Source of the DNA: Tubulanus polymorphus
Lineage: Eukaryota > Animalia > Nemertea
NCBI RefSeq assembly: GCF_964204645.1
Contig: NC_134036.1
Coordinates: forward strand, 9,713,859 to 9,777,858
DNA length: 64,000 nucleotides
Direction of reading: 5' to 3'
A program made the position numbers and the translations under genes. Shown piece after piece: positions 20,944 through 45,840 of the stretch; within the stretch, counting starts at the first letter, position 1; the number at the start of each line of letters is the position of its first letter. The notes beneath the pieces are model-generated. The model searched no databases. It had not been told where the DNA came from and saw only the letters and a program-made list of their open reading frames with translations.

Positions 20944-20944
20944 A

Positions 20945-23604: not shown

Positions 23605-23612
23605 TCCATATT

Positions 23613-24188
23613 AGTAATAGGGGTTTAGTTGTTTCATACCAAAGATCGAACGGTCGAGCCCATTAAAAAACAAAATATTAAAAGTAATTAAAAAACTATA
23701 ATATATTTTCATAACCGTGTGTATTTCATATTAAAACTAAATATTTATTCTAAGATATTAATAATATAAAAAGCATATTGTATTAAATCAATTGGTCGCT
23801 CCGCTTCGCTACCGCTCCGCTCCGCGACTAATTGATTTAATTACAATACACAAATTTATATAATCAAATATATTCAAATGATAATAATTATTCTATTGTT
23901 CAACTGAAATACACACGGTTATGAAAATATATTATAGTTTTTTAATTACTTTTAATATTTTGTTATTAATGAACTCGATCATTAAACCTTTGATATGAAA
24001 CAACTAAACCCCTATTACTCTTAAAATATTCACATATATGAATAACATTTAAATCATTGAACTTCTAAAATCAATTTTAATAAAAAATATAGTATTAAAA
24101 TGGAAGCAAATAAATACTACTGCCCAACATGTAATATCGATATAGACAAGTCTCAAAAAGCAAGACGCAATAAAACTATAACACATTT
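23613..24188 (+). repeat. Left TIR (576 bp); 23613-24019 is an internal imperfect palindrome
   Basis: Reverse complement of 41676-42221 apart from a few substitutions and a 30-bp indel; includes the first ~30 codons of polB. Confidence 0.95.
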
Positions 24189-24273
24189 GTTTTTAGTCCA
24201 GTTGGTTAAAGCAAAGACATTTATCGAATTAAGGAACTCAACACATAGTGAAAAATACGTTGAATCGTTATAA
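24100..24273 (+). pseudogene. 57-aa chimeric ORF: polB N-terminus plus the C-terminal tail of an HNH paralogue
   Basis: MEANKYYCPTCNIDIDKSQKARRNKTITHL followed by FLVQLVKAKTFIELRNSTHSEKYVESL*. Confidence 0.65.
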
Positions 24274-25232
24274 ACACCTGATAATACTCAGCTATATAGT
24301 TGGTTGTATTAACTCTAGTAAACATATGTTACCAGCTTATATTTCAATTGTAAAGAGTTAATTAATTTCATTAATCTAAATGCTTTTATTATTGTTTTTT
24401 TCAACTTCAACACGTTGTGTATACAGCGAACGTAGCGAATCACAAATCTCATAATTTACAAGTCTCAACACGCTTGTTCTAGATGTTTATACTAGAACAT
24501 GATTCTATTTGAGCCTATATACATTCAATGTACAGAGCCATAGAATAAATCTATAAATTCGCAGCTGTTACAGTTGTTACTATAACAACGAGATATTATG
24601 ACTCATAATATTACAAACTGTGCTGGAACACTCTAGAACCGGAACTAGATGACGTGGTATAATCAACGACGTGTCATTCTAGAAATCGCCCCGGAAATGG
24701 ATATACGCTGTAATATTGTGCTCAGGATATTCTATCTTTCGAAACGAAATTAGGAGTTTATAGTTTACAATTATAAATCTAAATGTAAGTACTGTTTGTT
24801 GTAGTTATTAAGGCTATTAAATACGAAACCTTTAGATATATTTAAGCGTATTTAGAATATCTTTTAGATTGCTAGAGTTACCGCTAATATCTTTTAGGTT
24901 AATAAAACGTCATACACATCAAGAAGCGATAGAGAAACTCAAGATACTCTTTCTGCCTGAGGAATCAACAGCAATGGATATCAAACCAATAGAAATTAGC
25001 ACAAGAAACACAAGAATCGCCAAAAGATCGTCGAAGAAACTATATAAGAATTTCAAAAACATTAAGACTCCAATGATTAAGTTTAACATTTGTTGATGTA
25101 GTTAAATATTTACCAGCAATTGAAAAAATGTTTGTAATTATAAATTGTATTTATAGAAATCAAATGATGTGTTGGAAGAAACGGCCGAACAACTTGTATA
25201 ATGTATTGTGTAAATCTGATTGATGAATTTTT

Positions 25233-25575
25233 ATGTTCGGTCGTTTCTATTCAGAATGAATATATAATTATGATTAACGCATGCGCATTAAGCAAAAGCG
25301 CTCCTATAAGAGCGGTTTTGCCTAATGCGAACACGTTTTGATATTTTATGTCGATCGTTTCTATTTACATAATTATATATTCATTATGTAAATATAATTA
25401 TGATTAACGCATGTGCATTGATCAAAAGCGCGCACGAATGCGCGGTTTGCTCAGTTGTATGATTTTGATATTTTCTGTGTTCGGTCGTTTCTATTTCTAG
25501 AATGAATATATAATTATGATTAACGCATGCGCATTAAGCAAAAGCGCGCATGAATGCGCGGTTTTGCCCAGTGGT
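25233..25575. repeat. Three ~125-bp tandem units with palindromic cores
   Basis: Repeated TCGTTTCTATT...ATATAATTATGATTAACGCATG(C/T)GCATT..CAAAAGCGC...GCGGTTT. Confidence 0.85.
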
Positions 25576-25707
25576 ATTATTTAGATATCAAGGAATCGAA
25601 ACAACTTATCAAAAGCAGCGAGGAATGAAAAAGGATGACGTTAGTCGGAGAAATGGAAGAGGATTCTAAAATTATTAACCAATTTAGTAAAAAAATATGT
25701 ATAATAA

Positions 25708-26376
25708 ATGGAACCAGAACAACCACAAACTACCAATATTACAAATAACACTGGCGTTATAAACATATATTACAAGAAATGTTCTAAATGTGAATTAGAT
25801 AAATTAGCTATAACAGAATTTAGTAAGCGTAAGATTAGCAAAGATGGTTTTCAAAATTGTTGTAAAACTTGTACTAAACTATACACCAAACAATATCGAG
25901 AAGATAATATAAAACATTATAATTATTATATGACAAAATATATGAGAGAAAGATATCAAACAGATCTTAATTTTAGATTGAAACAATGCTTAAGGTCTAG
26001 ATTAACACAATTATTCAACAAAGAAACTCATTCAGTTACACTGTCTAATTTATTGGGTTGTTCAGATGAATTTCTCAAATCATGGATTATATTTCAATTC
26101 GATGATAAAATGAATATAGATAATTATGGGGATTATTACCACATTGATCACGTGTTACCAATATCTAAATTTAACATGAATGATGAATACAATAAAAAAC
26201 TTATTTGGAATTGGAAGAATCTAAGGCCTTTAGAAAAGAAAGAAAATCAAACCAAATCTAATAAACTAGATTTTCAGTTATATTCAGAACAGTTAATAAA
26301 GGCAAAGAAATTTATTGATCAATGGAATAATAATCCAAATAATGAACAATACGTTGAGTCTTTAATGAGTGGTTAA
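25708..26376 (+). CDS. HNH endonuclease with N-terminal C4 zinc ribbon
   Basis: CSKC...CKTC; YHIDHVLP...NWKNLRPL...ENQTKSNK His-Me finger; intact. Confidence 0.85.
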   Translation: MEPEQPQTTNITNNTGVINIYYKKCSKCELDKLAITEFSKRKISKDGFQNCCKTCTKLYTKQYREDNIKHYNYYMTKYMRERYQTDLNFRLKQCLRSRLTQLFNKETHSVTLSNLLGCSDEFLKSWIIFQFDDKMNIDNYGDYYHIDHVLPISKFNMNDEYNKKLIWNWKNLRPLEKKENQTKSNKLDFQLYSEQLIKAKKFIDQWNNNPNNEQYVESLMSG

Positions 26377-26602
26377 AGAATAATATATCTCAAATAAAAT
26401 ATAATAAAAATTACATACCTTCAACTATCTATTATTTCTATTTTAATTTTTAATATTTTCTTTTCAAAAAAGAATACTTTATATCACAAATAAAAAATAC
26501 TAAAAAAACAATAACTAATACTAGAATTCTTTAGCTTTAACTAGCTAGTATCATTTGAAGAATACTTATAATATTTTTTTTTGCTTTTTTTCTCTAATAT
26601 AA

Positions 26603-27205
26603 ATGTCAAAGAAATCTAATAAGAATAGTATTGATATTGAAAAGACATTAGATGATTTGGGTATAAGTGATAATAAAGATACAGTTGCAACTAATTGTGC
26701 TCAAGTTAATAACAATATAGATTATGAATACTATTTATATTGTAAGCATCATCTTGAACTATTGATTGCTGGCGGGAAATCTAAGGACTTCTTAGGAAAA
26801 ATAATAACTTTTCAAGAACTAGACTCTATGAAACCCGATAAAGTAATAAAATATTTTAAGATTTATGAAGAGTCAAGATTAGCTAGAATAAACGACTCTA
26901 TAAGTGATGGTATTGTCAAATGTTATTCAAAATTATGTAACCAGTTAATACCAATTGATGATGAAAATAAATTATATAATGATTTGAAAAATGACTATTT
27001 AGTTATGACTGAATTACAAAAATGGGTTGGATATGCTTCATTTCAATTAGGATCGGTTATGACGTTGATTTCTACTGGAGTTATAACATTTTCGAACATC
27101 AAACCTATGGAATATAAATCAGGTAAGAACGAAACAGATGTACTACAAAAAAACGTCGAAACAGAAAATGAATCAGAACAAAAATTAACTAAAATAAATG
27201 AGTGA
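26603..27205 (+). CDS. Polinton hypothetical protein with a hydrophobic C-terminal segment
   Basis: Intact 200-aa ORF preceded by T7-N8-TAAATG. Confidence 0.75.
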   Translation: MSKKSNKNSIDIEKTLDDLGISDNKDTVATNCAQVNNNIDYEYYLYCKHHLELLIAGGKSKDFLGKIITFQELDSMKPDKVIKYFKIYEESRLARINDSISDGIVKCYSKLCNQLIPIDDENKLYNDLKNDYLVMTELQKWVGYASFQLGSVMTLISTGVITFSNIKPMEYKSGKNETDVLQKNVETENESEQKLTKINE

Positions 27206-27542
27206 TGGAGTTAAGAAAAAGGCTAGATCCGAGAAACAAATTAAATGGGCAAGAGAATTAGGTAAAAGATCATCAGAATTAAAAAAAGCTAAGAAAAAGA
27301 AATTAACTGATATAAATGAATCTGATATTGATTCAAATAATAATCCATCTAATTCTTCTAATAGTGGAAGTAATTATAAATTATATATTACAATTGGGTT
27401 AATCACAGTTATTATATTCTCTGGTGTAATATATAAATATAAATTTAAATCTGATTATAAATATGATTCCGATGACAATAAACGTATCATACCAGAAAAT
27501 AAATCAAGTGAAAATAAATCTAAAATATTATTAATGGATTAA
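27198..27542 (+). CDS. Small basic protein with one TM helix
   Basis: Basic N-terminus, then LYITIGLITVIIFSGVIY; TAAATG start. Confidence 0.75.
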   Translation: MSDGVKKKARSEKQIKWARELGKRSSELKKAKKKKLTDINESDIDSNNNPSNSSNSGSNYKLYITIGLITVIIFSGVIYKYKFKSDYKYDSDDNKRIIPENKSSENKSKILLMD

Positions 27543-27545
27543 AAT

Positions 27546-28634
27546 ATGATGAAAAAAGAACAATATTTAAGAGAGTTATATTATAACCCAGAAAGTGAAG
27601 TATCATATTCAAGTGTTTCGGAATTATGGGATAAAATTAAATCTGATAAAGAAAAAATAAAATATAGTGAATTAAAATCATGGTTACAAAATCAACCCAC
27701 ATATCAAATTCATAAAAAGATGGATAAAAAATATTTAACAAGAAAAGTAATGGTTTCATATATTGACCAACAATGGCAAGCTGATTTAATTGATATGAAA
27801 ACCTTAGAAGAATATAACAAAGGATATTTCTGGATACTGAATGTTATAGACATATTCAGTAGATACGCATGGAGTATCCCGATTAAAAATAAAACTGGTA
27901 TAGAAGTTACAAATTCTTTCAAATCTATATTTAAAGAAGCTATCCCAGATGAAATTCAATTTGATGAAGGTAAAGAATTTTATAACAAACATTTTAAAAA
28001 ACTATTAACTGATAACGATGTAGAATATTTTTCAACACATTCAGATAAAAAAGCATCTGTTATAGAAAGATTTAATAAAACATTGAAAACTAGAATGTGG
28101 AAATATTTTACCGCTAATGAAACATATAAATATATCGATGTGTTAGATGATTTAGTTAAAGGTTATAATAATTCTAAACATAGTTCTATAAATATGAAAC
28201 CTATACAAGCTAGAAAAGAAGATAATTCAGAAATAGTTTGGAATAATTTATATGGAGCATTTGTTACACATGATTTTGGAGAACCTAAATTTAAAATAGG
28301 ACAACATGTTAGAATTTCTAAATATCGAAAAACATTTTATAAAGGTTATACCCCTAATTTTACAGAAGAAATATTCAAGATTAAAAAGATAATATTAACT
28401 AAACCATTTGTTTATAAATTGTTTGATTTAAAAGATGAAGAAATATTAGGTTATTTTTATGAACAAGAATTATCATTAGTACCAAATCCAGATGAAATAG
28501 AATACAAAATAGAAAAAGTATTGAAAACAAAAACTCTTAAAGGAAAAAAGTATTCTTTGGTGAAATATAAAGGATATGATGATAAATTTAATGAATGGAT
28601 TTTATCTAGTAAAATTAAAAGAATAAATGAATAA
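27546..28634 (+). CDS. int: Retroviral-type (rve) DDE integrase with C-terminal chromodomain
   Basis: WQADLID, QFDEGKEF and IERFNKTLK catalytic motifs; chromo-like YKIEKVL...LVKYKGYDDKFNEWI; intact. Confidence 0.97.
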   Translation: MMKKEQYLRELYYNPESEVSYSSVSELWDKIKSDKEKIKYSELKSWLQNQPTYQIHKKMDKKYLTRKVMVSYIDQQWQADLIDMKTLEEYNKGYFWILNVIDIFSRYAWSIPIKNKTGIEVTNSFKSIFKEAIPDEIQFDEGKEFYNKHFKKLLTDNDVEYFSTHSDKKASVIERFNKTLKTRMWKYFTANETYKYIDVLDDLVKGYNNSKHSSINMKPIQARKEDNSEIVWNNLYGAFVTHDFGEPKFKIGQHVRISKYRKTFYKGYTPNFTEEIFKIKKIILTKPFVYKLFDLKDEEILGYFYEQELSLVPNPDEIEYKIEKVLKTKTLKGKKYSLVKYKGYDDKFNEWILSSKIKRINE

Positions 28635-29238
28635 AGATTTATTTATATTTGAACCGTATAATATGTTAGTTACTGGAGTTACGAATTGTGGTATAACACA
28701 TTTCATATTAGACTTGTTAGAAACTATTTATAAAAATCATTTTGATAATATAATATTATTCTGTCCTACATATGAAATGAATAAAACATATAATAGAGAT
28801 ATAGTTAAGATAAAAAAGTTTATTATATTAGATCCTAAAACAGTAAAAGAAAATTTAGATAATTGTATAAAAATTACATTAGATATTTATAAAGGATCAA
28901 ATACATTATTTATTATTGATGATTGCGCAAATTTACATGATTCAAAAGTTAGAGAAAGTGAGTTATGTTATTTGGCTTTCTCTGGTAGACATTTTGGGAT
29001 AACAACATGGGTTTTAAATCAGAAATATAATTCAATTGTGAAAGATTTTAGAGAGAATATAAGATTTCTAGTTTTATTTTATAACAAAGATAAAAAATCT
29101 ATGCAACAATCATTGGAAGAAAATCAAATTATACCAACTGAATTACATGATGAATATATGAATAAATTAAAAAATAATAAAGGTTCCAAATTACTTATGA
29201 GATTACAATTTCCATATGAATATAAATTTATAAAATAA
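28627..29238 (+). CDS. A32/FtsK-like DNA-packaging ATPase (Walker A Lys replaced by Ile)
   Basis: GVTNCG[I]T, Walker B FIIDD, SGRH and NQKY motifs. Confidence 0.9.
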   Translation: MNKDLFIFEPYNMLVTGVTNCGITHFILDLLETIYKNHFDNIILFCPTYEMNKTYNRDIVKIKKFIILDPKTVKENLDNCIKITLDIYKGSNTLFIIDDCANLHDSKVRESELCYLAFSGRHFGITTWVLNQKYNSIVKDFRENIRFLVLFYNKDKKSMQQSLEENQIIPTELHDEYMNKLKNNKGSKLLMRLQFPYEYKFIK

Positions 29239-29254
29239 AATCCTAATTCAAAAT

Positions 29255-29776
29255 ATTATAGAATTCACTGTATATTGATGGATGAGTGGATGAATTGGAT
29301 GAATTGGAAGAGTGGATGAATGGAAGAGTGTAATAATATATAATTTACATATGTTTTTTTTATTTTTAAAACAGTAAGAGTTTGATTTGAAGATGTCATA
29401 TAATAATAAATATATTTTTATAAAATAATAAAATGACAGATAATAAATGTCATATAATAATAAATATATTTTCATAAAATAATAAATAATAAAATGATAA
29501 ATAATAAATATATTTTTATAAAATAATAAATATATTTTTATAAAATAATAAATAATAAAATGATAAATAATAAATGTCATATAATAATAAATATATATTG
29601 TGTTGAATTTAATAAAGAATAAAAATATTATATTTATACTCATAATATTCTTCCAATTTATGTGTTAAAAAGTAAAATATATATATTATTATACTCATCC
29701 ACTCTTCCACTCATCCAATTCATCCAACTCTTCCAACTCATCCATTCATCCATCAATATACAGTGAATTCTATAAT
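29255..29776. repeat. Internal inverted repeat enclosing an AT-rich tandem array at the convergence point of the two gene blocks
   Basis: Perfect 31-bp IR (29255-29285 / 29746-29776), extended by TGGA(T/A)GA repeats. Confidence 0.9.
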
Positions 29777-29780
29777 CTTT

Positions 29781-30800
29781 TTAATTTTCATTTTCATATT
29801 TTTCTTTAAGCTTATTGTATTCTAAATTTATATCCATTTGCATTTTCTTTGATATAATTCCTGAAAGATTCCCGAATTTATATTTATAGAATTTTACTTT
29901 TGAAAATATTTTTGGAATATAATTTTCGATTTCAGTTTTAGATGGATGTTTATTTAAAAATTCTCTAAAATCATCATATTTAAGTTCAAATAAGTTCATT
30001 GCATAACTTACATTTGGTTTAAAGTTATCTAACTTTTTCAATATGGTAACTATATCATTACTCGAGAAATAATCTATAAATGTTTTTCTATACCACCGAT
30101 AATCTAATATATTATTATTATTAAATTTTGGATTTATAACTCTTGGATCTTCTATTACATTATCTGTACCAATATGTTTAATTGAGTATTTATGATTCAA
30201 TTGTTTATCATATATTACATATTCTTTACATTTTTCACACCAAGATTTAAATACTTTTATTGCATGGGCTGAATCATTTCCACTTTTTGTTTTTAATTTA
30301 TAATGTTTTGCCCAATTAGCCTTTGTTATACATTCATTACAGAAAGCACAATAATTCTGATCCTCTTTACATTTATCTTTATATATATTGGCATATGTTT
30401 TTACTAATTGTAAAATATGTTCATCTTTTTTGATGTGTAATAAATAATCATTATAATTATCAAAATCTTCTTCACAATACATACATCTGATGTTATCTTT
30501 TGGTTGAACATTTGATTCTTCTATTTTAGGTTCAATATTATCATCATTCGATGTAGAAGGTTCAATATTATCTTCTATTTTTATATCAATATTATCTTTT
30601 ATTTTAGGTTCAATATTATCTTCTATTTTTATATCAATATTATTATTACGTTCAATTAAATATTCTTTGTATTGATTTAATTCATTTAATAAAAATGTTC
30701 CAATATATTCATTTATTCTTTTATAAGGTATTACATAATACAAATCATCATTGATTTCTTTATCAGCTTTGATTCTTTCATATAGTTTACCTCCTTCCAT
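29781..30800 (-). CDS. Multi zinc-finger (C2H2/matrin-like) protein
   Basis: CMYC..H..H, CAFC..H and CEKC..H..H motifs; short DNIEPKI repeats. Confidence 0.75.
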   Translation of the reverse strand: MEGGKLYERIKADKEINDDLYYVIPYKRINEYIGTFLLNELNQYKEYLIERNNNIDIKIEDNIEPKIKDNIDIKIEDNIEPSTSNDDNIEPKIEESNVQPKDNIRCMYCEEDFDNYNDYLLHIKKDEHILQLVKTYANIYKDKCKEDQNYCAFCNECITKANWAKHYKLKTKSGNDSAHAIKVFKSWCEKCKEYVIYDKQLNHKYSIKHIGTDNVIEDPRVINPKFNNNNILDYRWYRKTFIDYFSSNDIVTILKKLDNFKPNVSYAMNLFELKYDDFREFLNKHPSKTEIENYIPKIFSKVKFYKYKFGNLSGIISKKMQMDINLEYNKLKEKYENEN

Positions 30801-30832
30801 TTATTATATATATTTTTATTAAAGTTAAAATT

Positions 30833-32080
30833 TTAATACATAACACTATCTAATTGTGAATTTATAATATTTAATTGCGCGTCAGATATAATATAAATAT
30901 GCATTTTAAAATTTTTAATTCCCTTTTTCTTTTTCATGAATAATTGTATTCCATCTTTTGTATTTTGTAGTTTTTTTCCAGAACCATGTAATGAATTATC
31001 TTCAGTTGTTCTAAAATCTAACCATAATGCATATTTATTACCGGTATAATAATCAATTTGATTAATGTTACAATTTTCAAATGATTTTACTTTTTCATTT
31101 ATAAAATGTTTTCTAATTTCTACCCATTGATCTATCATTCTCATTCCTTGACAAAATATTTTATTCGCTATACCTTCGATAGTTATTTCTACTTTTGTTA
31201 TTTCAGGATTATAATAATTGTCAACATTTATTGCGCCATTAGTATACGTTCCAATAGTAAAAAATATTAATATACCTTTAATAGATCTTCTAGGGAAGTT
31301 AATATTCTCATTTATTATTTCATCATTTGCATTAATAGTTACAGTTTTAAATTTATCAATATAATCATATAATAATGAAAATCCTTGATTGTATTGAGTT
31401 TGAATTATACTTGAAATATTTTCATCAGTTACTGTATCATATTCTAAACATATATTCGATAATTTATAACTCATATCTTTAACAACACTAGATAATACAA
31501 TTTCATTTACAGGAGCAAATGTTATCTCAAATATAATATCTTCTTGAATTGCGTATTTATATAAAGGTGCATTATTATTTATCAATTCAAAGTCTAATGG
31601 AATTTTATATTTGCTTCCATATATACTTTTTATCAATTTATCTACATCATTTGTTAATATTGCGCTATTAGCTTCTGATCTTAATTTATTTTGGTTTTCT
31701 GATTGGATACCTTGAAATATCATATTATTTCTATTTTCTTTAGTTAACCATAAATCTTTATAATGCATAAATAAATTATAATCATCTAATGAGAAAACTG
31801 TTTCTGGACCAATCTTTATTGTTAACTTTTTAATCAAATATCTTCCAACATTATCAACGACATAATTATTATTATTACCGATTACTTTTATATCAGCTGA
31901 TAAATAAATACTATTTGGAACGTAAAAAGTATTTTGTGTTAATCTAGGAATTCTAACGTATAAAGTTTCATCGGGATTAATATTTGAAGGGTTATGAGTA
32001 ATTATATGATGTGATCTTTCTGCTTTAATAGCATTAGATATTCTATGATTCTTAGAAGGATTGATATAACTCCCACTCAT
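30833..32080 (-). CDS. Major capsid protein (double jelly-roll)
   Basis: Intact, beta-rich, 415 aa; NPS.I.P..TLYVRIP, NINFPRRSIKGIL and LWLDFR..DN.LHGSG motifs typical of Maverick MCPs. Confidence 0.85.
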   Translation of the reverse strand: MSGSYINPSKNHRISNAIKAERSHHIITHNPSNINPDETLYVRIPRLTQNTFYVPNSIYLSADIKVIGNNNNYVVDNVGRYLIKKLTIKIGPETVFSLDDYNLFMHYKDLWLTKENRNNMIFQGIQSENQNKLRSEANSAILTNDVDKLIKSIYGSKYKIPLDFELINNNAPLYKYAIQEDIIFEITFAPVNEIVLSSVVKDMSYKLSNICLEYDTVTDENISSIIQTQYNQGFSLLYDYIDKFKTVTINANDEIINENINFPRRSIKGILIFFTIGTYTNGAINVDNYYNPEITKVEITIEGIANKIFCQGMRMIDQWVEIRKHFINEKVKSFENCNINQIDYYTGNKYALWLDFRTTEDNSLHGSGKKLQNTKDGIQLFMKKKKGIKNFKMHIYIISDAQLNIINSQLDSVMY

Positions 32081-32104
32081 TTATTTAACAAAAAAATTAA
32101 TTAT

Positions 32105-33678
32105 TTATTTTTTGATATTTTTTGATATCATATTTACTAAACCAAAAATAATAGCACTTACAACTGTGATTAAAAATAAAATAATATGTTCAGCAGCAAA
32201 GTTAATAATGTTTCCTGCAGATTTCAATATAAAACCAACAATTGAAGCAATAACTCCTGGCAATGCTGCAGCAGATTTTTTAGATAGTTCCCATAAATAT
32301 TTTGCTAATTTCTTTAAACCATCTTTAACTTTATCTTGTATAGAATTATTACTTGGAGGTTTATCTGGTTTATTTGGAGTAGGAGTGGGAGTAGATTTTA
32401 AAGCATTTGATATTGCTAAACCAATTGTTGTAAATAACATAGTTACAGCTGTTAGAATTGAAAGAATTGTTATTCCTTCAAACTTAAATAATAATTTTAT
32501 TCTATCTTTTAATGATATGTCAGAATTTGGTTTTAGTATTAACTCTTTAACAACAACTTTTAATCTATTAATACAATAATCATATGATTTTGATAATAAT
32601 TTCATTTTTTCTTTCTGAAATTCTATGTTATATTCTAAATCATCAATTTCTTTTTCTAAATATGCATTTCTTTTTTTAAATTCAATTTCTTCAATAACTT
32701 TAAATTCTCTATCTAATTTTAATTGTTCTAATTCTTTTCTGGTGTCAAATAATTTATTTTCTAAAGGTTTAATTTTATTATATCTAATATTTTTTTCGCG
32801 CGCAATTTTATCGGCTTCATTTCGTATACTTATTATTTCTCTAATTGTTTTTTTAGAAAACATATTTAAAGCTTCTATTTCTTGATCTGTTGCATCAAGT
32901 AATCCATTCGGTAAAAGTTTTTCAGTTTGAACTTCGTTTGATTTAAGTTTACTAGTTTTGGAAGTTTTATTCAGTAAGTTATCTAAACGTTTTTCTAATT
33001 GTGATTGACTTAAATCATTATCAATTTGTTGAGTGTCTCTTCTCGATGTTTCGGGTGTTGAAGATCTTAATTTATCTCTATTCTCTTCCATTTCCGTTTC
33101 TGGATTATTATCGATTATTTCAAATAATTCATTAATTCTTTGTTTAAATTCTTTTCTATTATTATCTCTTTCTTCTTGTGTAACATCAGTTATTTAATTT
33201 CTATTACTTATTCTCTTAATTCTATCTGGTTCTAACTTAAGCAAAGTTGATTCTGCTAATATTATATTTTGAGTTTTATAAGAGATGTTAAAATAATAAT
33301 CATCTTTCAATTTATAATAATATTCACCATCTAAATATTTTAATTCTTTTACTAAAAGTCTGGCACCTCTGTAATTTATATTATATCCAGATTTTTTACA
33401 TCTTGAAACTTATAAATATATTCAATATTTTCTAAATTTTGTCTTGATAAACCTTGATTTTCATTTTCAGGATTTATTCTCGATCTAGTTCTTCTATCAA
33501 ATTCATCTGTTGATGGGACTTTAGAACCACTATCTGCTAAATTAGAATTATATGCTGATTCATCATCATTATCAATATTAGTTTCATTAAAATCGGTTTG
33601 TGGTTCATCGTCAATATATCCTTCATTATCATTTCCCATGTCATCCAATGGAATATTTTCTACACCTTCTACATCCAT
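32105..33678 (-). pseudogene. ~520-aa coiled-coil and membrane protein, disrupted
   Basis: ORFs 33376-33678 and 32105-33091 are joined by an otherwise open frame, with a frameshift near 33400 and one TAA at 33194-33196; hydrophobic C-terminal helices. Confidence 0.75.
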
Positions 33679-33694
33679 TTACATAATAAAAAAA

Positions 33695-35083
33695 TTAAAA
33701 TTTAAAATATAATATTCCTCCGATTACAATTCCTATACAAGTTATAGCTAATTTAGTATTTTCATGGGATTTATTATCATCATTTAGTTTAATTATATCA
33801 TGTTGAATTTTATCAGTTCTATTATTTTCTGATGTATTGTAATCTTTTATTTTAGAATCATTAACCAATTTAATATTCTTAGTTTTAGTTTCTGTTGATT
33901 GAATGTGTTTTTTATTTTTTTCACCTTCCATTAATTTTGGGGCAGTAATAATCTTTTTATTTATATCATTTAATCCAAATGAATTATTTATTGTTGCAGT
34001 TTTAATTAGATTATTATAACCAATTATATTTCCCATCTTTAATACTAAATCATTAGAAATAATTAATAGATTAGGGCCTATACAATAATTAAGTCTTACA
34101 TGAGATTTATCTAAATAATTTTGATATCTTATAATGTTTTCTGGAATCGATCTATTTTTATCATTATGAATTGAATCTTCAAATAATACTTTAAACTGTT
34201 TTTGTGTATCAAATGATGTATTCAAATTTCCAATTATCGGTGATCTTGTTTCAACTTGTGATCCTAGAATACAAATCAAATAAGTTCTAATAGATTGATT
34301 TATTCTTTCTATACCTGATTTAGTAAAACCTTCACTATTTTCTAAAATAAAATAAACCCAACCATTATTGTTTTCTTGTTTTAAATTATCATAAAATTTT
34401 GGTAATTTATTGAAATTTAATGTTTCTAAATCCTTTGTTTCTATTTTACCATAACCTAATTTTTTATTATAGATATTATAAAAACTATTAGATGGTATGG
34501 GAAGTGCACAATATTCTGCAATCTTTTTAGGGCAAGGAAGTGATCTTATTGTTCCAATTTTTATTCTAAAATCAGAATTATTTATATCTATATTAAATTC
34601 ATTACAAATTTTATAAAACTTTGATAAATTAATATTATTATCTAATTCTTTAAAATATCTAGATCCTGGTAAAGCGCACTCTAATTCATTTAATATTATT
34701 CTGATTTGAAAGTATGTATGAAATCTAAATAAACTTTGAATTAGTTTATATTTAGAATTATTCAAATGATCATTCCAACTTATTCCACATCCTGTTGTTG
34801 CACAATAAACAGCAAAATTTAATTGGTTCTGCCAATACTTCATATTAGATTTTAATAACCATTGTTTTTCATCTTTCAATTTTTTAAAATTAATTAAATA
34901 TACATGAAATATATTTTCCATCTTTGCATTAAAATTATTAGTTTCAGTAACGTTCATTTCTAAATTAGTTAATGAATCTAAAACTTCATTTCTATATGTA
35001 ATATCTTTATTAAAATCTATTGCTGGAATATTATATTTAATTGATTTATTATATCGGAAAGTTTTTGGAAAACTATCTGCCAT
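33695..35083 (-). CDS. Conserved Maverick protein with a C-terminal TM anchor (putative virion protein)
   Basis: Intact 462 aa; WQNQLNFAVYCATTGCG motif; C-terminal LAITCIGIVIGGILYF. Confidence 0.75.
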   Translation of the reverse strand: MADSFPKTFRYNKSIKYNIPAIDFNKDITYRNEVLDSLTNLEMNVTETNNFNAKMENIFHVYLINFKKLKDEKQWLLKSNMKYWQNQLNFAVYCATTGCGISWNDHLNNSKYKLIQSLFRFHTYFQIRIILNELECALPGSRYFKELDNNINLSKFYKICNEFNIDINNSDFRIKIGTIRSLPCPKKIAEYCALPIPSNSFYNIYNKKLGYGKIETKDLETLNFNKLPKFYDNLKQENNNGWVYFILENSEGFTKSGIERINQSIRTYLICILGSQVETRSPIIGNLNTSFDTQKQFKVLFEDSIHNDKNRSIPENIIRYQNYLDKSHVRLNYCIGPNLLIISNDLVLKMGNIIGYNNLIKTATINNSFGLNDINKKIITAPKLMEGEKNKKHIQSTETKTKNIKLVNDSKIKDYNTSENNRTDKIQHDIIKLNDDNKSHENTKLAITCIGIVIGGILYFKF

Positions 35084-35100
35084 TTATATAACTAAAAAAA

Positions 35101-35535
35101 TTAATAATTTATTAATTCTTTTAATAATATATCTTGTTCTTCAACTGTTATATGACCATTTAAACTTATTATATAATCTAGTGTATTCTTCAATTTATTA
35201 ATTTCTTTTATATTAGTTTTAATTTTTTCTTTATTACTTTTTATATTTAATTTTGAACTTATACCAGTTAAAACACTTGAACTTAATCCTAATACACCAA
35301 TTGATATAGCTAAAGGTGTTAATGGACTGAATATTGCTAGAAATGTTATTACAGAACTAATTGTAACCGAACCACTTATAATCAAATAATATATAATTTT
35401 ACTTTTTAAATATTTTTTCTTTTTTATCTTTAAGTCACTTTCAAATTCTAATATTTGTTTTTCTAAATATATTTTTAATTTAGTTTTATTTATATCATGA
35501 GGAATAATATCAATACTATCAACTTTATCTTCCAT
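35101..35535 (-). CDS. Two-TM membrane protein flanked by coiled coils
   Basis: Hydrophobic hairpin at residues ~47-91; TAAATG start. Confidence 0.75.
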   Translation of the reverse strand: MEDKVDSIDIIPHDINKTKLKIYLEKQILEFESDLKIKKKKYLKSKIIYYLIISGSVTISSVITFLAIFSPLTPLAISIGVLGLSSSVLTGISSKLNIKSNKEKIKTNIKEINKLKNTLDYIISLNGHITVEEQDILLKELINY

Positions 35536-35554
35536 TTATTTAGAATAAAAATTA

Positions 35555-35977
35555 CTAATTAGTAAACTTATAAGCAACAAATATAACAATAACTGTTCCA
35601 CCTAAAATCCATATTATTTCATATTTCTGTTGTTCTTTACTCGGGGTATAATAATCTGATAATTTAGGTTTGTATAGATGTAATTTTTCTTTATTGGTTA
35701 CTGTGTTATATAAACTCATAGCATCATCAACTGATTGAAAATCTCTGTGTGAAATCTTCTGATCATATAATTCTTTATTGATGTAATCCATATAGTTTTG
35801 TCTCTTTTCTCTATATTCTTCTGCAGCTTTATTGTATTTCTCTAACGCTAAATTATGTCTTCTTTGTTCTCCTAATGAACTATTTTTATCAATATGTTTA
35901 AATAAATAACCACCACCAGTAAATGCTAAAGCGTTAACAATTGCTGATCCTATAATAGTTATAATTGCAGAAGCCAT
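35555..35977 (-). CDS. Membrane protein with hydrophobic N- and C-termini
   Basis: MASAIITIIGSAIVNALAFTGG...RHNLALE...IIWILGGTVIVIFVAY. Confidence 0.78.
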   Translation of the reverse strand: MASAIITIIGSAIVNALAFTGGGYLFKHIDKNSSLGEQRRHNLALEKYNKAAEEYREKRQNYMDYINKELYDQKISHRDFQSVDDAMSLYNTVTNKEKLHLYKPKLSDYYTPSKEQQKYEIIWILGGTVIVIFVAYKFTN

Positions 35978-36001
35978 TTATTTAGCAAAAAAATTATGCA
36001 T

Positions 36002-36223
36002 TTATATGGGAGGAATATATTTTTGTTTTTCCAAATAATCAATTGTTAAATTAGATAAAGTAACTGCTAATGTTAACTTTAAAATATCATTTATATCAAA
36101 TCTGTCAACATTAACACTTCCCATTTTGAATACTTTTTTTAATACCATTGAATAACCAACAGTTCCAACTGATAGTAATGCGCCATTATATAATCCAGTT
36201 ATTATCCACTTATTAACACTCAT
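36002..36223 (-). CDS. Small hydrophobic protein
   Basis: 73 aa, fits tightly in the gene array, T7-N6-TAAATG start. Confidence 0.7.
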   Translation of the reverse strand: MSVNKWIITGLYNGALLSVGTVGYSMVLKKVFKMGSVNVDRFDINDILKLTLAVTLSNLTIDYLEKQKYIPPI

Positions 36224-36580
36224 TTATTTATCAAAAAAATTACTATCATCAAAATATTTAGTTAACTTATTTATGATTATTTCAACATTTATTTCATTAC
36301 TAGTTTCATTTGTATATATTTCAATTATTATTTTTTTAATATCATCGATGATAAAATCTTCATCTAATTCATAAAATCTTAAAGATTCTCCAATTAAATT
36401 AGTAATCTTTTCTACATTTAAAGTTTCTTTATCTATTGTTGTTTCATACTCAAATGTTGTTTCATTAGAAAATGCAATATTTTTGATATGTGTTATTACA
36501 TCATTAATATTAAATTTCATTTCTTTTTCGCGTTTAAAATCAAACCCAAAACATATACTCGGTCCAACAGTTATATTCAT
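36224..36580 (-). CDS. Acidic hypothetical protein
   Basis: 118 aa; T7-N6-TAAATG start; its stop abuts the next ATG. Confidence 0.7.
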   Translation of the reverse strand: MNITVGPSICFGFDFKREKEMKFNINDVITHIKNIAFSNETTFEYETTIDKETLNVEKITNLIGESLRFYELDEDFIIDDIKKIIIEIYTNETSNEINVEIIINKLTKYFDDSNFFDK

Positions 36581-36596
36581 TTATATATCAAAAAAA

Positions 36597-37349
36597 TTAC
36601 TCTCTACATCTTATAACTAATTCATAAATTACAGGGAAATTATTTAAATCAATTAAGTATCCATTATGATTTCTAATTTCTAATCTAAAATTATTAAATT
36701 TAGGAATACAAGGTTTGAAATCACATTCTGTTGAATTATAATTTATTTGAGTTCCAAATTGTTTAACATTTTTTAGCGGTAAAATATTTAGTATACTAGA
36801 ACTACAAATTGTTTCTTTAGTTGCTTCGAAAGTTTTTGTAGGCTCGATTAAATTGCAATAAATATAAAAGTGTGTAAAAGGTATTATATTTGATGTAGTA
36901 TCAACATTTGAATAATATTTATCTGGTGTAATTCCTAATAGTTTAGCTATAGGTTTTTTAACTGAAAATTGATATTTTTCATTATGAGCTAACCTTATCT
37001 TCATTTTATTAGAATTATCACTTTTCAAAAATCTAATGTTAAATTCAGTATCACTACCTAATTTGATCCGAGCTTTTTTATTAATTTCCTGCGCTAATGT
37101 ATTTAAATTATATAATCCTGGTTTTAAAAATAGATAATTCCATTTATCCTTACTCTTGATTGAAAAAAATAAATGTTCAAGACTTTTAGCTGTTATATTA
37201 TAAAAAGAATTACATAAACTTATATTAACTAATTTTAAATCTACACAATTCTTAAATTCTCTATCTAATTGTACTAATAAATTATGTGATTTATAATTTG
37301 TAAGTTTTCTAGAATCAACATATATTCTGTATTCTTTTAATTCCGCCAT
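36597..37349 (-). CDS. Minor capsid protein (penton, single jelly-roll)
   Basis: IYVDSR, NSFYNI, PGLYN, YIYCNLI and LEIRN..G.LIDLN motifs. Confidence 0.8.
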   Translation of the reverse strand: MAELKEYRIYVDSRKLTNYKSHNLLVQLDREFKNCVDLKLVNISLCNSFYNITAKSLEHLFFSIKSKDKWNYLFLKPGLYNLNTLAQEINKKARIKLGSDTEFNIRFLKSDNSNKMKIRLAHNEKYQFSVKKPIAKLLGITPDKYYSNVDTTSNIIPFTHFYIYCNLIEPTKTFEATKETICSSSILNILPLKNVKQFGTQINYNSTECDFKPCIPKFNNFRLEIRNHNGYLIDLNNFPVIYELVIRCRE

Positions 37350-37366
37350 TTATTTTACATATTTTC

Positions 37367-37708
37367 TTATTCGAAATCTATTTCATGGTGTCCTTTTTCA
37401 TTCTTACCTTTATATACGAAATAGAAATCTCCAGAACATAATTCTTCTAGATCTTCACTTGATAATCTATGAAATCTATCTGGTAAATAAGTTCTGAATT
37501 TATGTGTATTTCCTTTTAATCCTTCATATTCTAAATGAATTATTAATTTATCTCCATATTTGTTAGTAACTGTAACAATATTTGTAATTAAATATTTCTT
37601 GTGAATTGTTAACTCAGTTAGTTTTTTGAATTTATAATCTACAGATTTTACATTTGTGGTATCTTTAATTCTATCTAAGAATTCATTGTGTACTTGTTTG
37701 CTCTCCAT
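37367..37708 (-). CDS. Small putative OB-fold/ssDNA-binding protein
   Basis: 113 aa; TNKYG...YLPDRF...FVYKG pattern; adjacent to polB. The fold is inferred, not shown. Confidence 0.5.
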   Translation of the reverse strand: MESKQVHNEFLDRIKDTTNVKSVDYKFKKLTELTIHKKYLITNIVTVTNKYGDKLIIHLEYEGLKGNTHKFRTYLPDRFHRLSSEDLEELCSGDFYFVYKGKNEKGHHEIDFE

Positions 37709-37736
37709 TTATTATACAAATTTTTATTGAAATTTA

Positions 37737-40700
37737 TTAACACGCTAGAAACCTTTTCATAATCTCATTTTCTTTTGTTTCTTCTCTTTTGAATTTTATA
37801 TATTCATCTAAATTACAACCATAGGCGACTGTGTGGATTCCATCATCTAAAATATATCTTTTATCATCAAATGGGTTTAGACTTATCTTCTCTATCTCTT
37901 CAATATACATTTCATGATCTTCAGATCTTAAACATTTCATCTTATGTTTTCTAACTTCTTCATTAAATATACAATTGATGTAATCTTTGAAATGAATATT
38001 CTTTTCTACTACACTTTTGGTTATTCCTTTTAACTTTTTAGCTTCATGTTCTTTAGTTTTATATGAATACATTTTAGATCTAATACCAATGAACTCTATC
38101 ATTTCTTCACCGCCTAATTCATCCTTAAACTTACCAGGAATCTTTTTATTATCATTGCTAAATAGTTCATGATTTTTTGGATAGTTACTGAAATCAAAAT
38201 GGTGTTTTAATATTTTCAAATCATCTTTTATGTTATCAGTTTTTATCTTTAATATGTAACTGTCGGTATCAAAGTATAGAATTTCTATGTGTTTTTCTCC
38301 AAAATGGGGTTGTAATATGTTATAGTAAAATTTATACATTAATAACTTTGATAATTCTAAAACCGATGCACCAACATAAATAGGTTTATTGAACTTCATA
38401 GAAGTTCTTCTCATTTTAACTGCTGCTAAATTTTCATCAAATATTCTGTTACCTATGAATTTCGGATACGATTGTAAATGTCTAATTCTTTTACCATTAC
38501 TAACTAACTCAATATCACTTCTATTTCTTATGTTTTCACAAGTCTTACCATAAAATGCATTATTCATTAACTTAAAAAAATCCTTCTCAAAATCAGTTTT
38601 AGATTTAGTTCTCTGTGTAGTATTAAAATCTATATATTTTTCTAACCACTTAGATTGATTAAATGAAATATATCTATGTACTTTTTTTAATATCATTCCT
38701 TGATTCAAATAAAACTTCAACATTCTATAATGTACTACATAATTATATTTATCTTCTTGAGTTACCATTAACTTTTCAGTATGAATATGATTATCGGGTT
38801 TAATTCTTTTTTGATAATTTGATAATTCTTCATGTTTAACAGTTTTATGTTCGGGACAATATGCTAGATTTCTAGATTTGAATTTAATATTTTCAGGGTA
38901 TTCTAAATCTACAACAAAGAAGTAACCAATATCTGAATCATCTGCAATATCTAGGATTCTTTTCTTCCAATCAAATTTATCAATTTGTAAAACTTCAGTT
39001 ATTTCAAACATCCCATAAGGTTGTGGTTCCATCATTGCCCAACCATAAAGATTATTTGCATCTATGTATAATAATTTATATCCAGGATTATCATTTACAT
39101 TGAAATATCTATCACCCAATACACCTGAAACACCTCCTCTTATAGATTTTTCAAATAATAGTAATTGATCTATATTTGTTAACAAATCCATTTTTATAAA
39201 AATTTTAATCCACAATCCCATGTTAATCCTGGTGATGAATAACAATGACAAGGATCAATGTTAAAATATTTTAGGTTTACATCTCTAAACCTTTCGAATA
39301 TATCGGTTAATAATAATACATCTGATTTTAAATATAAATCTACTAATTGTCCATGATTTTTAATTTCGAAATGATTCCAAATATTCAATGTTCTATTATA
39401 GACTTCATCTTTAACATATTCATTTTTTAATTCATCATAGAATTGTTCTTTCAATAATTCAGTTATTTTAAAATCATTATGATTTTTATAGAAAGAATAT
39501 GGAATTGCACCTTTATATCTCATTAATTTAAAATCATCATAATTTGGGTAATATTCTTTTAATATCTTTAATTCATCATCAACTAATGATTTTGATAAAT
39601 TATCTAATGAACTTGCTAGAAATCTATAAGAATCTATAAATCTTAGACAACCAAATTGGAATGATATATAATTCTCAGATGTTTTAGCTAACATTCTAAA
39701 TTTATAAGTTGGTATTTTATCTTTTGATCTATTTGAATTTAATATTTCTATTCCATTATTGATTTCTTCTATTTTATGACACAGTTGTTTGATAAATAAA
39801 TGTGCGTCATATCCTGATAGATTATGAAATATAACTGGTACAAAGTTAATTTTCTTAGCTTGTAAGTTACAATTCTCATGTGCAGCGCCTCTAAACTTTC
39901 CATTCAAATGATCATGGTCTCTTACTTTTTTATCTTTATAATTAAATATCTTTTCACAATAATAACATTTATCTGCAAACTCAAATGCTTCTTTATCTTC
40001 TTCCGTCATTATAATTTCTATATTTGTATCCAATAGTTTACTAAATCTTATTTCATATTCAATTAATAAGTCACAAAAATGATTGATAACATTTTCATTT
40101 CTATAATGATAATATTCACTTTCAATTAGTTCTGGATAATCAGATTTTATATATAACCCGAAAGCAGCAGCTGATTGATGAATCTTTTTAATTGTATTTG
40201 TTTTTGGTGGTTCTTCTGAATAATCACTTTCATTAGAATTTAATTTCTTTCTTTTATAATATATATCTTTTCTATCTTTATCTGTTAATTCTTTATTTAA
40301 TGATTCAAAATCTCCATATATTACAAATGGTACTTTATTTTTGTAATCATATTTTTTGAATTCTAATATTTTATCTTTTTCATTTGGTAAAACTAATTTA
40401 CAATAATCATGATTATCACATAGTTGTTTATGATTTAATAATGCACCTTCAGTTCTGAATTTATGTAAACATAGTCTACATAGATATATTTTATTATCAA
40501 AATCATTTTCTGATTTAAAAAATAAATCGATTTGTTTAATCCACATATAATGATTCTCATAATATAGTATATCTATAACATCATTTGAATCATAATCTTT
40601 TGATAGGTATAAAGGTTCTAATGTATAATGTTTAATATTATTTCCTTTTGTATTTGGTAATTTAATTAAATCAAATACATTTATTTTAAGATTATTATCT

Positions 40701-41764
40701 CTTTCTATTTTTGGAATATTTTTAATTCTAACAGGATACTTATCTATCTTATAATTATTTTCAAATTGTTTATAATGAGTTAATCTAAAACTATGTGTAA
40801 TATCTTCTGTTGGATGTAAACAACTTATTATAGCCCATAGTAAACATTTATCATCAAAATTTTGTACATTTATTACAGCATTAGTTTTAAATGGTAGTTT
40901 AATATAACTTGTTCCATTTATATTATCATCTTTATAATATGATAAATTATTTTCATCAATTGGTTTTGATTTAGTTAACTTATTATATTTTGTGTTATAA
41001 ACATGTAAAGTTATAAATATTATTTCATCAAATATTAAACCAGATCCTTCAAAATATTTCTCTTCTATTTTAGTTTTTATTTCATTATAACATTTATTTA
41101 ATTTATCATCTATATGTTGTTTAGATATAATATGTTGTGAATGAGAATTTATATTATATATTGGTTTATCTTCAGATTTTATAAACTTTACTTTAACTGA
41201 TATACTAATTTTAGGATATTCAACATCTGTAATTATTTTTATTATTTCTTTCATATTTTCTAAATGTTTTTTATTTTCTTCTAATGTTTTACCTTTATGA
41301 AATTTAAACTCGATAGCTGCTGGACCAATATCACTTTTAAATGCTTCGGTTATCTCTATATCTTTTTTATTATCTAATGAATTAATATAATTTCTTACAT
41401 CTTCCATATATGGTCTTTTATTGTTTAATTTATTTTTTATTCTTTTAATTGTCTTCTGTTTCTTATCGTTATCATTATCAAAATAATCTTCACCTAAAAT
41501 ATCATTATTCTTATTTCTAATATGACTTATAGATTTTAAATGTTCTTTATAATATCTTTTATCACTGAATGATTGATTACATGTATCACATTTGTATGTT
41601 TCCTTTTCATTCTTTAATTCTTCTAATTTAGTTTCTAATATATCATCCTTATATTCTAGTTTCAATTTATTCTCTAAATGTGTTATAGTTTTATTGTGTC
41701 TTGCTTTTTGAGACTTATCTATATCGATATTACATGTTGGGCAGTAGTATTTATTTGCTTCCAT
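37737..41764 (-). pseudogene. polB: Protein-primed family B DNA polymerase split by one frameshift at ~39195
   Basis: Exo YGDFES, FHNLSGYD and YLKSDV; Pol YIDANNLYG, KLMNNAFYGK, YFDTDS and KMY; EndoVII-like CYYC..DHDH..G..RG..H..CN insert. SPGLTWDCGLKF continues as IKMDLL in another frame. Confidence 0.97.
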
Positions 41765-42221
41765 TTTAATACTATATTTTTTATTAAAATTGATTTTAGA
41801 AGTTCAATGATTTAAATGTTATTCATATATGTGAATATTTTAAGAGTAATAGGGGTTTAGTTGTTTCATATCAAAGGTTTAATGATCGAGTTCATTAATA
41901 ACAAAATATTAAAAGTAATTAAAAAACTATAATATATTTTCATAACCGTGTGTATTTCAGTTGAACAATAGAATAATTATTATCATTTGAATATATTTGA
42001 TTATATAAATTTGTGTATTGTAATTAAATCAATTGGTCGCGGTTGATTTAATACAATATGCTTTTTATATTATTAATATCTTAGAATAAATATTTAGTTT
42101 TAATATAAAATACACACGGTTATGAAAATATATTATAGTTTTTTAATTACTTTTAATATTTTGTTTTTTAATGGGCTCGACCGTTCGACCTTTGGTATGA
42201 AACAACTAAACCCCTATTACT
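41676..42221 (-). repeat. Right TIR (546 bp); 41845-42221 is an internal imperfect palindrome
   Basis: Reverse complement of the left TIR, lacking 30 bp at the hairpin apex. Confidence 0.95.
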
Positions 42222-42411
42222 CATATTGATTGTCCGAGTGAATTGATTTCGGCGATGATCGATCAGGCAATGAACGAATTTCTAGGGCTCTTCGATAACA
42301 AATCGTAAATCACCTTTGGTTTGAGATATCATTACCATAGTTGTTGAAATTCTTTTACCAGTAGTAGGGCCTACATAGGTGGCGGTGTAATGCATGACTA
42401 CTGCCCTGACG

Positions 42412-45400: not shown

Positions 45401-45690
45401 AATAAAGATCCGTGACTTGGTAGTTTAAGTTCAACCAGTTCAGCTACTGTATACATAGAATATACAGGGTCACTAAATATGGTGGCAGACAGAAAATAAA
45501 TCCATTTTAGAATATAAATCCAATAAAAGTCCGGTAACATTTCGATTTTTCCACTTTCTTCGTTCTACAGTTACGAGCATAATCACAGCATATTCATAAA
45601 CACATCTGAACACTTGACATAGGATTATCATCTTAAATTCCATGAATAATTTGAAGTTTTCCAGGAGACTCAGAGAGCAGCTGTCACGCG
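42412..45690 (-). mobile_element. Near full-length L2/CR1-group LINE (APE + RT), decayed
   Basis: APE motifs WNARSL, VTETWL, GDFNIH and PTH..GH..DL; RT motifs RPVSNL, DLTAAFDTVDH, GVPQGSVLGP and FADD; (TTA)n tail at ~42412-42424; several stops and frameshifts. Confidence 0.93.
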
Positions 45691-45840
45691 CTCATCTGAT
45701 CAACTATAAATCACAACACATTGTTCGTAATGTGGCGCATCACCATTTGAACAGTACCCATTGATTTGGTTTTGGGACATCTATAACTGATATCAAACAA
45801 ATAGCATCGGAACAGTTTGACGAACTAGAAGCTTTTTTTG

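Follow-up and report, generated by a model that had tools for sequence, protein, structure and literature searches.

Mavirus and the endogenous mavirus-like elements share the late promoter motif of their helper virus (10.1101/068312, PMC8547959), and Polinton-like viruses are present in entomopoxvirus occlusion bodies (PMC11296320). In late promoters of vaccinia virus the start codon is overlapped by TAAAT, in most cases with a G after it, and there is a conserved T ten bases upstream (PMC11980589) and a T core 5-7 bp from TAAAT (PMC5294985); its intermediate promoters have TAAA, no T at the tenth base upstream, and an AT-rich stretch 15-19 bases upstream that is followed by a T (PMC11980589). 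TAAATG is conserved in a fish poxvirus (PMC4542343), and slippage on a TAAAT-type initiator makes 5' A leaders both in vaccinia and in yeast linear elements (PMC6211774). The virion and life cycle of animal Polintons are not described in the literature searched, and the question at stake is whether these elements live as autonomous nuclear viruses or rely on a helper, and how their genes are expressed. Here we describe a Polinton/Maverick of the nemertean Tubulanus polymorphus, integrated within a stretch of 64,000 nucleotides (contig NC_134036.1, positions 9,713,859 to 9,777,858, assembly GCF_964204645.1; hereafter the window), whose genes start in a short TAAATG signal that resembles the poxvirus promoters and recurs across a whole capsid clade.

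Fourteen of the 16 genes of the element begin in TAAATG, just as the initial annotation of the window had read them; the exceptions are the integrase gene, which starts TAAAATATG, and the polymerase gene polB, which starts TAAAATG. Of 350 sense-strand ATGs within genes, only 27 follow a TAA (binomial P 2.7e-14, Fisher P 5.3e-13), and with the intergenic TAA frequency of 0.069 as background P is 5.5e-15; the starts far exceed both expectations, enrichment over background being a check that the annotation had itself proposed. It had also named eight genes (starts 26603, 32080 of the major capsid protein (MCP), 33678, 35083, 35535, 35977, 36223 and 36580) as having a run of five to seven Ts, a spacer of 6-8 nt and then TAAATG, and all eight do. 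T stands at -16 to -12 in every one of them, TAA precedes the run in seven, and a T-run at the same offset is seen in none of the 27 internal TAAATGs and in 3 of the 350 internal ATGs. Two marks of a vaccinia late promoter are found, namely TAAAT(G) over the start codon (14/16) and a T-rich core about ten bases upstream (8/8 T-class starts). An A-rich core had been proposed for the HNH, zinc-finger-like (ZnF), penton, single-strand DNA-binding (SSB) and polB genes, and this class is a real pattern, with A at -16 to -13 and T at -12 in all five; the consensus quoted for it, TAAAAA(A)..T(A/G)TATAA, fits HNH, ZnF and SSB well, but penton and polB loosely. These five make up the A type in the window, and the T type comprises the capsid and membrane genes. 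The T-run of 36223 does sit within the coding sequence of 36580, as had been noted, and 36223 is the sole start whose TAA is an upstream stop codon (1/14); in the relative L001, its ortholog retains the same T-run though the gene before it stops 19 bases short of where it does in the window; the start motif is therefore not a by-product of the upstream protein. The element and its genes, in window coordinates, are as follows.

23613..42221: whole integrated Polinton/Maverick, 18,609 bp, 23% GC, ends AGT...ACT
25708..26376 (+): HNH/endonuclease VII-like gene, phrog_1035 E 8e-16; A-type box and TAAATG
26603..27205 (+): conserved gene of no assigned function, adjoins the ATPase in relatives; T-type box and TAAATG
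27198..27542 (+): small predicted membrane protein; TAAATG overlaps the upstream gene, A-leaning box
27546..28634 (+): rve integrase with chromo-like C-terminus; exceptional start
28627..29238 (+): A32-like packaging ATPase; TAAATG overlaps the integrase end
29781..30800 (-): ZnF gene, fast evolving; A-type box and TAAATG
30833..32080 (-): MCP, double jelly-roll by predicted model and Foldseek; T-run and TAAATG
32105..33678 (-): predicted membrane protein, its gene broken into 33678-33376 and 33091-32105; T-type box and TAAATG
33695..35083 (-): conserved 462-residue gene with C-terminal hydrophobic segment; T-type box and TAAATG
35101..35535 (-): SLATT-like gene with two transmembrane segments (weak matches); T-type box and TAAATG
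35555..35977 (-): small predicted membrane protein; T-type box and TAAATG
36002..36223 (-): conserved 73-residue gene; T-run within the upstream coding sequence here, intergenic in L001
36224..36580 (-): 118-residue gene of no assigned function; T-type box and TAAATG
36597..37349 (-): probable penton, conserved, 250 residues, only a sub-threshold DUF5901 match, label unconfirmed by any library; A-type box and TAAATG
37367..37708 (-): predicted OB-fold SSB, top PDB match PRD1 P12 at E 4e-3 (weak); A-type box and TAAATG
37737..41764 (-): putative family B DNA polymerase gene (polB) with endonuclease VII-like insert, in two frames; A-type box and exceptional start

Relatives were gathered with an alignment of 37 capsids, which led to 43 metagenome loci and two short genome-contig fragments; no relatives were found among viral contigs queried with the MCP, the MCP alignment, the ATPase and the integrase. 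In a capsid tree of 39 rows (20 of them represented by protein only; fragments and broken copies excluded) the window belongs to a clade of 20 rows with support 100/97, and the sister clade served as control in place of protease-bearing Polintons. The capsid gene starts in TAAATG in all 14 clade rows with DNA (the window and L001-L013) and in none of the five outside rows with DNA. Repeating the analysis on related Mavericks, which the initial annotation had proposed, shows that such starts recur across the whole clade: with starts chosen by script from ortholog N-termini, and the near-duplicates L011, L013, L018 and L027 dropped, TAA precedes the ATG in 41 of 49 clade starts and in 0 of 45 starts from outside it (Fisher 7e-19). 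A hand-curated set has TAAATG at 67 of 71 starts, 53 of 55 in the relatives, but omits uncertain starts such as those of the L002 integrase and of L015, which makes the scripted count the fairer of the two. In the 67 TAAATG starts of the clade the information lies between -18 and +4, with little further upstream, and T is found at -12 in 61 and at -13 in 51. The motif is retained across capsids about 50% identical and through gene rearrangements, and is also found on acquired genes (a deoxynucleoside kinase in L001 and several HNH genes), which points to continuing selection on it. The kinase (L001 10340-10981, minus strand; Pfam dNK E 1.7e-31) has a T-type start and three relatives at 60-67%; its 22 matches bear generic names only and point to no donor.

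Several more ordinary readings of the signal do not hold. The T-run is not the terminator of the upstream gene, because the divergent gene pairs of L007, L008, L009 and L012 share only 28, 28, 30 and 19 bases and carry TAAATG at both ends; since the motif works back-to-back in such a space, there is no room for a TATA-box promoter or a splice acceptor either. A TATA box places the transcription start about 25 bases downstream, and TATAAA at the start of HNH, 26603, ZnF, MCP, penton or polB would therefore put it inside genes whose next in-frame methionine lies at codon 75-120. The sequence AG, required of a splice acceptor, occurs within 12 bases of the ATG in only 3 of 16 genes. A bias towards the first ATG after a stop was rejected with one script run on open reading frame (ORF) starts, which returned TAAATG for 13/18 in the window and 12/13 in L001 vs 0/12 in L017 and 0/10 in L021, both of the sister clade. 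AATAAA occurs 70 times in the 14.2 kb of coding sequence, against 65.7 +/- 4.6 for codon shuffles (L001: 49 vs 51.3), and so shows no avoidance, in a weak comparison made without a host-gene control; about five per kb of coding strand are tolerated. The early terminator TTTTTNT is not significantly avoided in the window (8 vs 10.2), and its avoidance is seen in relatives. TGAAA, the pox early-type motif, lies upstream of only 2 of 16 genes. Judged from sequence, the motif is a non-random, clade-wide, start-fused, promoter-like element for which host-type readings fail. TAAATG promoters in Polintons are not described in the open-access main texts searched: the word 'promoter' is absent from the text of PMC11296320, PMC11131425, 10.64898/2026.06.19.733378 and 10.64898/2026.10.13.758929, and the accessible parts of PMC11071308, PMC5499653 and PMC4642659 contain nothing bearing on promoters.

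The sister clade has a start signal of its own. L017 and L021 have no TAAATG; 16 of their 20 genes have TATA within 18 bases of the start (other ATGs: 35 of 711), and in 13 of the 20 a T-run lies some ten bases ahead of the TATA. Each locus encodes a VLTF3-like protein (L017 6543-7052 and L021 5082-5579, Pfam E 6e-4 and 4e-5, not quite reaching the cut-off; PF04947 in 4 of 10 homologs), and a profile of 11 such sister-clade proteins found no match in the window element or L001 (one complete and one near-complete member of the TAAATG clade). African swine fever virus uses TATA as its late initiator (PMC7458399), and VLTF3 in some coral Polintons is already known (PMC11131425). These observations suggest that the helper differs from clade to clade, or else that the sister clade directs its own transcription.

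How does the element compare with described systems? It is like the late and intermediate promoters of vaccinia and mpox (PMC11980589, PMC5294985) in having TAAAT(G) over the start, a T-rich core about ten bases upstream, a second, A-rich type ending in T, and no information beyond about 20 bases; unlike in these viruses, no RNA polymerase was detected in it. With mavirus and the endogenous mavirus-like elements (10.1101/068312, PMC8547959) it shares an rve integrase, a putative polymerase B, a capsid module, host integration and starts with a motif like that of a large virus's late genes, but the motif is TAAATG and not TCTA, neither a protease nor a helper was found, and the host is of animal type. 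Virophage (Virophaviricetes) capsids rank low in the fold search, at 8-10% identity. The entomopoxvirus-associated viruses (PMC11296320) also have a small Polinton-like genome with terminal repeats and are proposed to parasitise a poxvirus in an animal; unlike the present element, all four encode a cysteine protease and none is described there with an rve integrase, whereas here the evidence is promoter-based and concerns a high-copy, rve-integrated family. Animal Mavericks, Polintons and adintoviruses (Polintoviricetes; PMC8502044, PMC11131425, 10.64898/2026.06.19.733378) match it in size, terminal repeats, 6-bp duplication, rve, ATPase, double jelly-roll capsid and, putatively, polymerase B, yet differ from it in the adenain-type protease, which was not detected here, in its several predicted membrane proteins and in the clade-specific TAAATG promoters. 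The yeast cytoplasmic linear elements pGKL1/2, which are protein-primed, are likewise linear and AT-rich, with stem-loops near 3' ends and a TAAAN initiator that gives slippage-made 5' poly(A) leaders; pGKL2, however, supplies an RNA polymerase, a capping enzyme and a helicase of its own, and it lacks both capsid and integrase (PMC6211774). The element would work like a virophage promoter system, yet it belongs neither to the virophages nor to the protease-bearing Mavericks.

We give somewhat better than even chances, on the strength of these sequence patterns, to the reading that the compact promoters are served by the RNA polymerase of a cytoplasmic large-DNA-virus helper. Each gene would have its own promoter of about 20 bases, consisting of an A/T tract ending in T at -12, some eight bases, and a TAAA that runs into the ATG. 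These promoters would be read by a large cytoplasmic DNA virus infecting the same cell, with its RNA polymerase and its post-replicative factors; transcripts would start inside TAAA and might carry slippage-made 5' A leaders. The element would then be a satellite of the virophage kind, surviving from one helper infection to the next as copies integrated in the host. The polymerase of a helper would be the simplest reader, because the motif matches the vaccinia late promoter and no RNA polymerase, TBP or VLTF3-like gene was detected in the element. A number of points weigh against a helper. The family is abundant in the DNA of the host species, where 9,755 contigs of one run match a 7-kb part at 85-100% identity (a depth that is not a copy number), and for so many diverged copies an autonomous nuclear element is the simpler explanation. 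CpG is depleted in the GC-richer clade members L004-L011 (327 vs 404, z -7.2), though not in the window or L001, which fits long nuclear residence. The integrase lacks TAAATG both in the window and in L003. Five or six genes are without an assigned function, and one of these may encode a transcription factor. A motif scan of viral contigs (55 of 64 parts, 120 loci) found no contig rich in TAAATG starts, with none in 68 loci, one in 35, two in 14 and three in 3, and no poxvirus-like contig was recognised; the record G001 has three among eight genes sampled. A purely cytoplasmic helper also needs a route to nuclear copies, which for mavirus is a proposal only (10.1101/068312).

A second reading needs no helper: host RNA polymerase II would use the motif as a compact initiator-type promoter through a host factor or one encoded by an unassigned gene of the element, the likeness to poxviruses being convergent or ancestral. 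The very large family in the host species agrees with it, the sister clade combines a comparably compact T-run and TATA element with a VLTF3-like gene of its own, and VLTF3 is also found in small polymerase-less viruses (10.64898/2026.06.19.733378). The TAAATG clade itself is less accommodating, as neither the window element nor L001 has a VLTF3-like match, no element protein matches a transcription factor in Pfam or NCBIfam, the geometry of TATA box and splice acceptor fails, and AATAAA is tolerated throughout the coding strands. To our knowledge, TAAAT is also not a usual animal initiator; on the whole we consider this reading unlikely, while granting it real weight. Improbable, in our estimate, is a relic, that is, a clade once dependent on a helper whose present copies spread by leaky host transcription or by integrase acting in trans, with the motif no longer read: the two broken genes of the window copy, the many diverged copies and the CpG loss in some members agree with it, but the retention of the motif across diverged capsids, rearrangements and acquired genes does not. 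Least probable of all, and largely refuted, is a feature of translation or composition (AT-rich context, an in-frame stop as insulator, or stop-start coupling) that is no promoter. The short intergenic DNA of the element is indeed 88% A+T, and +4 is G in 48 of 71 starts, which is Kozak-like; however, only one TAA in 14 is an upstream stop, the motif persists in clade loci of 32-44% GC, where its background is 2-8%, and is missing from outside loci of 29-30% GC, and translation signals do not include a fixed T at -12.

If the helper reading is taken further, the identity of the helper has to be considered. The initial annotation had proposed a pox-like virus, which the present data do not support: no helper sequence was found, and TAAATG starts also occur in viral contigs (L167-L186) that came up in the motif scan and that we take, partly by sequence likeness, to be invertebrate iridovirus-like; their Pfam match is L1R_F9L. 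There, 28 of 89 ORFs (seven loci of 20 fetched) start in TAAATG vs a background of 2-7%, so the helper need not be pox-like. Like the element, these contigs are enriched in AATAA-ATG starts; unlike it, the distance from initiator to ATG varies, and a T-run with TAAATG is found in only 3 of 89. AATAA directly or shortly before many start codons was seen in L064, L086, L089 and L167-L186, and is possibly an undescribed late initiator of the iridovirus-like contigs. The strict fusion of TAAATG to the start, together with the T core, would favour a pox-type reader. Iridoviruses have a nuclear phase (PMC5294985), which, together with invertebrate hosts, would give easier access to integrated copies. 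A poxvirus-like helper seems to us possible and still doubtful, and an iridovirus-like or other Nucleocytoviricota helper slightly more doubtful than that.

A temporal cascade, also part of the original proposal, finds no support. All five A-class starts have TAAA, no T at -13 and a T after the A run, but that run lies 10-13 bases upstream of TAAA, unlike the 15-19 of vaccinia intermediate promoters (PMC11980589). Nor is the class tied to the gene. Close relatives retain the T type in 12 of 13 orthologs, while among 18 counterparts of the window's T genes in distant clade members, 8 are of T type, 7 of A type and 3 of neither; SSB is of T type and 36580 of A type in L001, and penton is of T type in L007 and L022. 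In L007, L008 and L009 one short promoter is of T type toward the capsid gene and of A type toward the opposite gene, so the two classes can be two faces of one bidirectional A/T tract. With classes neither fixed per gene nor necessarily distinct, the cascade is unproven; that expression runs in two steps, first the replication genes polB and SSB with their A-type boxes and then the T-type genes for the particle, is a tentative idea that we rate below an even chance.

The TAAATG signal as a trait of one Polinton capsid clade appears to be new; the association of Polinton-like viruses with poxviruses is already published (PMC11296320). A clade-wide, start-fused signal of 20 bases makes the question of helper dependence testable. 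We speculate, well short of expecting it to be right in every part, that animal Polintons without a protease are endogenous virophages, each clade adapted to another order of cytoplasmic large DNA viruses: the TAAATG clade to pox- or iridovirus-type machinery after losing a VLTF3-like factor, and the sister clade to asfarvirus-type TATA. The promoters would then be traces left by invertebrate viruses yet to be discovered, and the many integrated copies would serve animals as an antiviral defence that can be induced. Should the helper reading itself hold, endogenous viruses that depend on a helper, so far known from protists, would extend to high-copy families in animal genomes, and promoter words would predict which large DNA viruses infect hosts where none are known.

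The element is larger than the span of 25690..41790 given to it at first, and its GC content stands out against the 31-51% per kb elsewhere in the window. Mavericks/Polintons end in AG...CT, and here such ends are found together with terminal inverted repeats of about 550-580 bases and a 6-bp target duplication. The features of the ends and of the central junction are the following.

23607..23612 (+): left target-site duplication CATATT, right copy at 42222-42227 (6 bp)
23613..24188 (+): left terminal inverted repeat, first approximately 407 bases one long imperfect hairpin
29237..29794: inverted repeat around AT-rich tandem repeats, at the junction of two converging gene blocks
41676..42221 (-): right terminal inverted repeat, 98-99% match to the left, polB promoter inside

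In the left terminal repeat the polB promoter and the first codons of the gene are present as a dead copy, and the right repeat lacks about 30 bases of the hairpin loop relative to the left. Each forms a 400-base imperfect palindrome (23613-24019 and 41815-42221; -115.6 kcal/mol, z -22 as DNA) in which the terminal 26 bases occur once more in inverted orientation; short GCTCC repeats lie in the left loop and are absent from the right end. The palindromes may have a bearing on end replication. Between 24188 and 25690 lies a 1.5-kb non-coding stretch with three 75-base repeats at 25253-25573 and, at 24540-24720, words that we take to resemble AP-1, CRE and ETS sites. It could be a host-driven control region; it has no Rfam or Pfam match, and Rfam on the left end gave two chance-level microRNA matches.

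Among the proteins, the integrase matches rve (PF00665) at E 3.6e-9, over the cut-off, and the ATPase matches PF04665 at E 1.8e-10; the MCP model (pLDDT 85) has Foldseek matches to major capsid proteins, with no named relative among the 120 capsid matches listed. The adenain-type protease of group 1 Mavericks and adintoviruses is not among them, as no peptidase family was found in 18 ORF pieces or in 10 short frames of the left non-coding region. The broken genes are polB, split near 39194-39221, and the 33678 gene, interrupted between 33376 and 33091, the ortholog of which in L001 is one ORF of 485 residues. The C-terminal piece of polB has what we read as family B polymerase motifs, and the gene gave no polymerase match in Pfam, PHROG or PDB searches; atlas searches with the ZnF and 26603 genes gave sub-threshold leads only.

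A strong hairpin marks the point where the ATPase and ZnF blocks converge in all three such junctions (window 29237-29794, L003 3100-3300, L012 3670-3870; z -10.8, -7.8 and -9.1), with no common sequence seen among them; it is absent at three other junctions tested, and a weaker one follows the ATPase in L001. The inverted repeat is a candidate terminator or origin. The coding strands of the element avoid A6 (51 vs 97) and T5 (23 vs 35) runs relative to codon shuffles, as do those of relatives, which may reflect polymerase slippage.

In the flanking DNA, a 235-base inverted pair with the look of a small DNA transposon (20944-21178 and 23371-23605) abuts the left end of the element. To its right lies what we take to be a broken L2/CR1-type LINE with endonuclease and reverse transcriptase pieces (42464-45564, minus strand). 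An 844-residue open frame with degraded relatives (59300-61834 and 12529-14465, both minus) resembles a Transib/RAG-like transposase with a cysteine-rich finger. The LINE and the transposase-like frames suggest an invertebrate genome. The window further holds a 1-kb dispersed repeat (636-1687 and 45833-46885) and a 154-base satellite (49378-50526).

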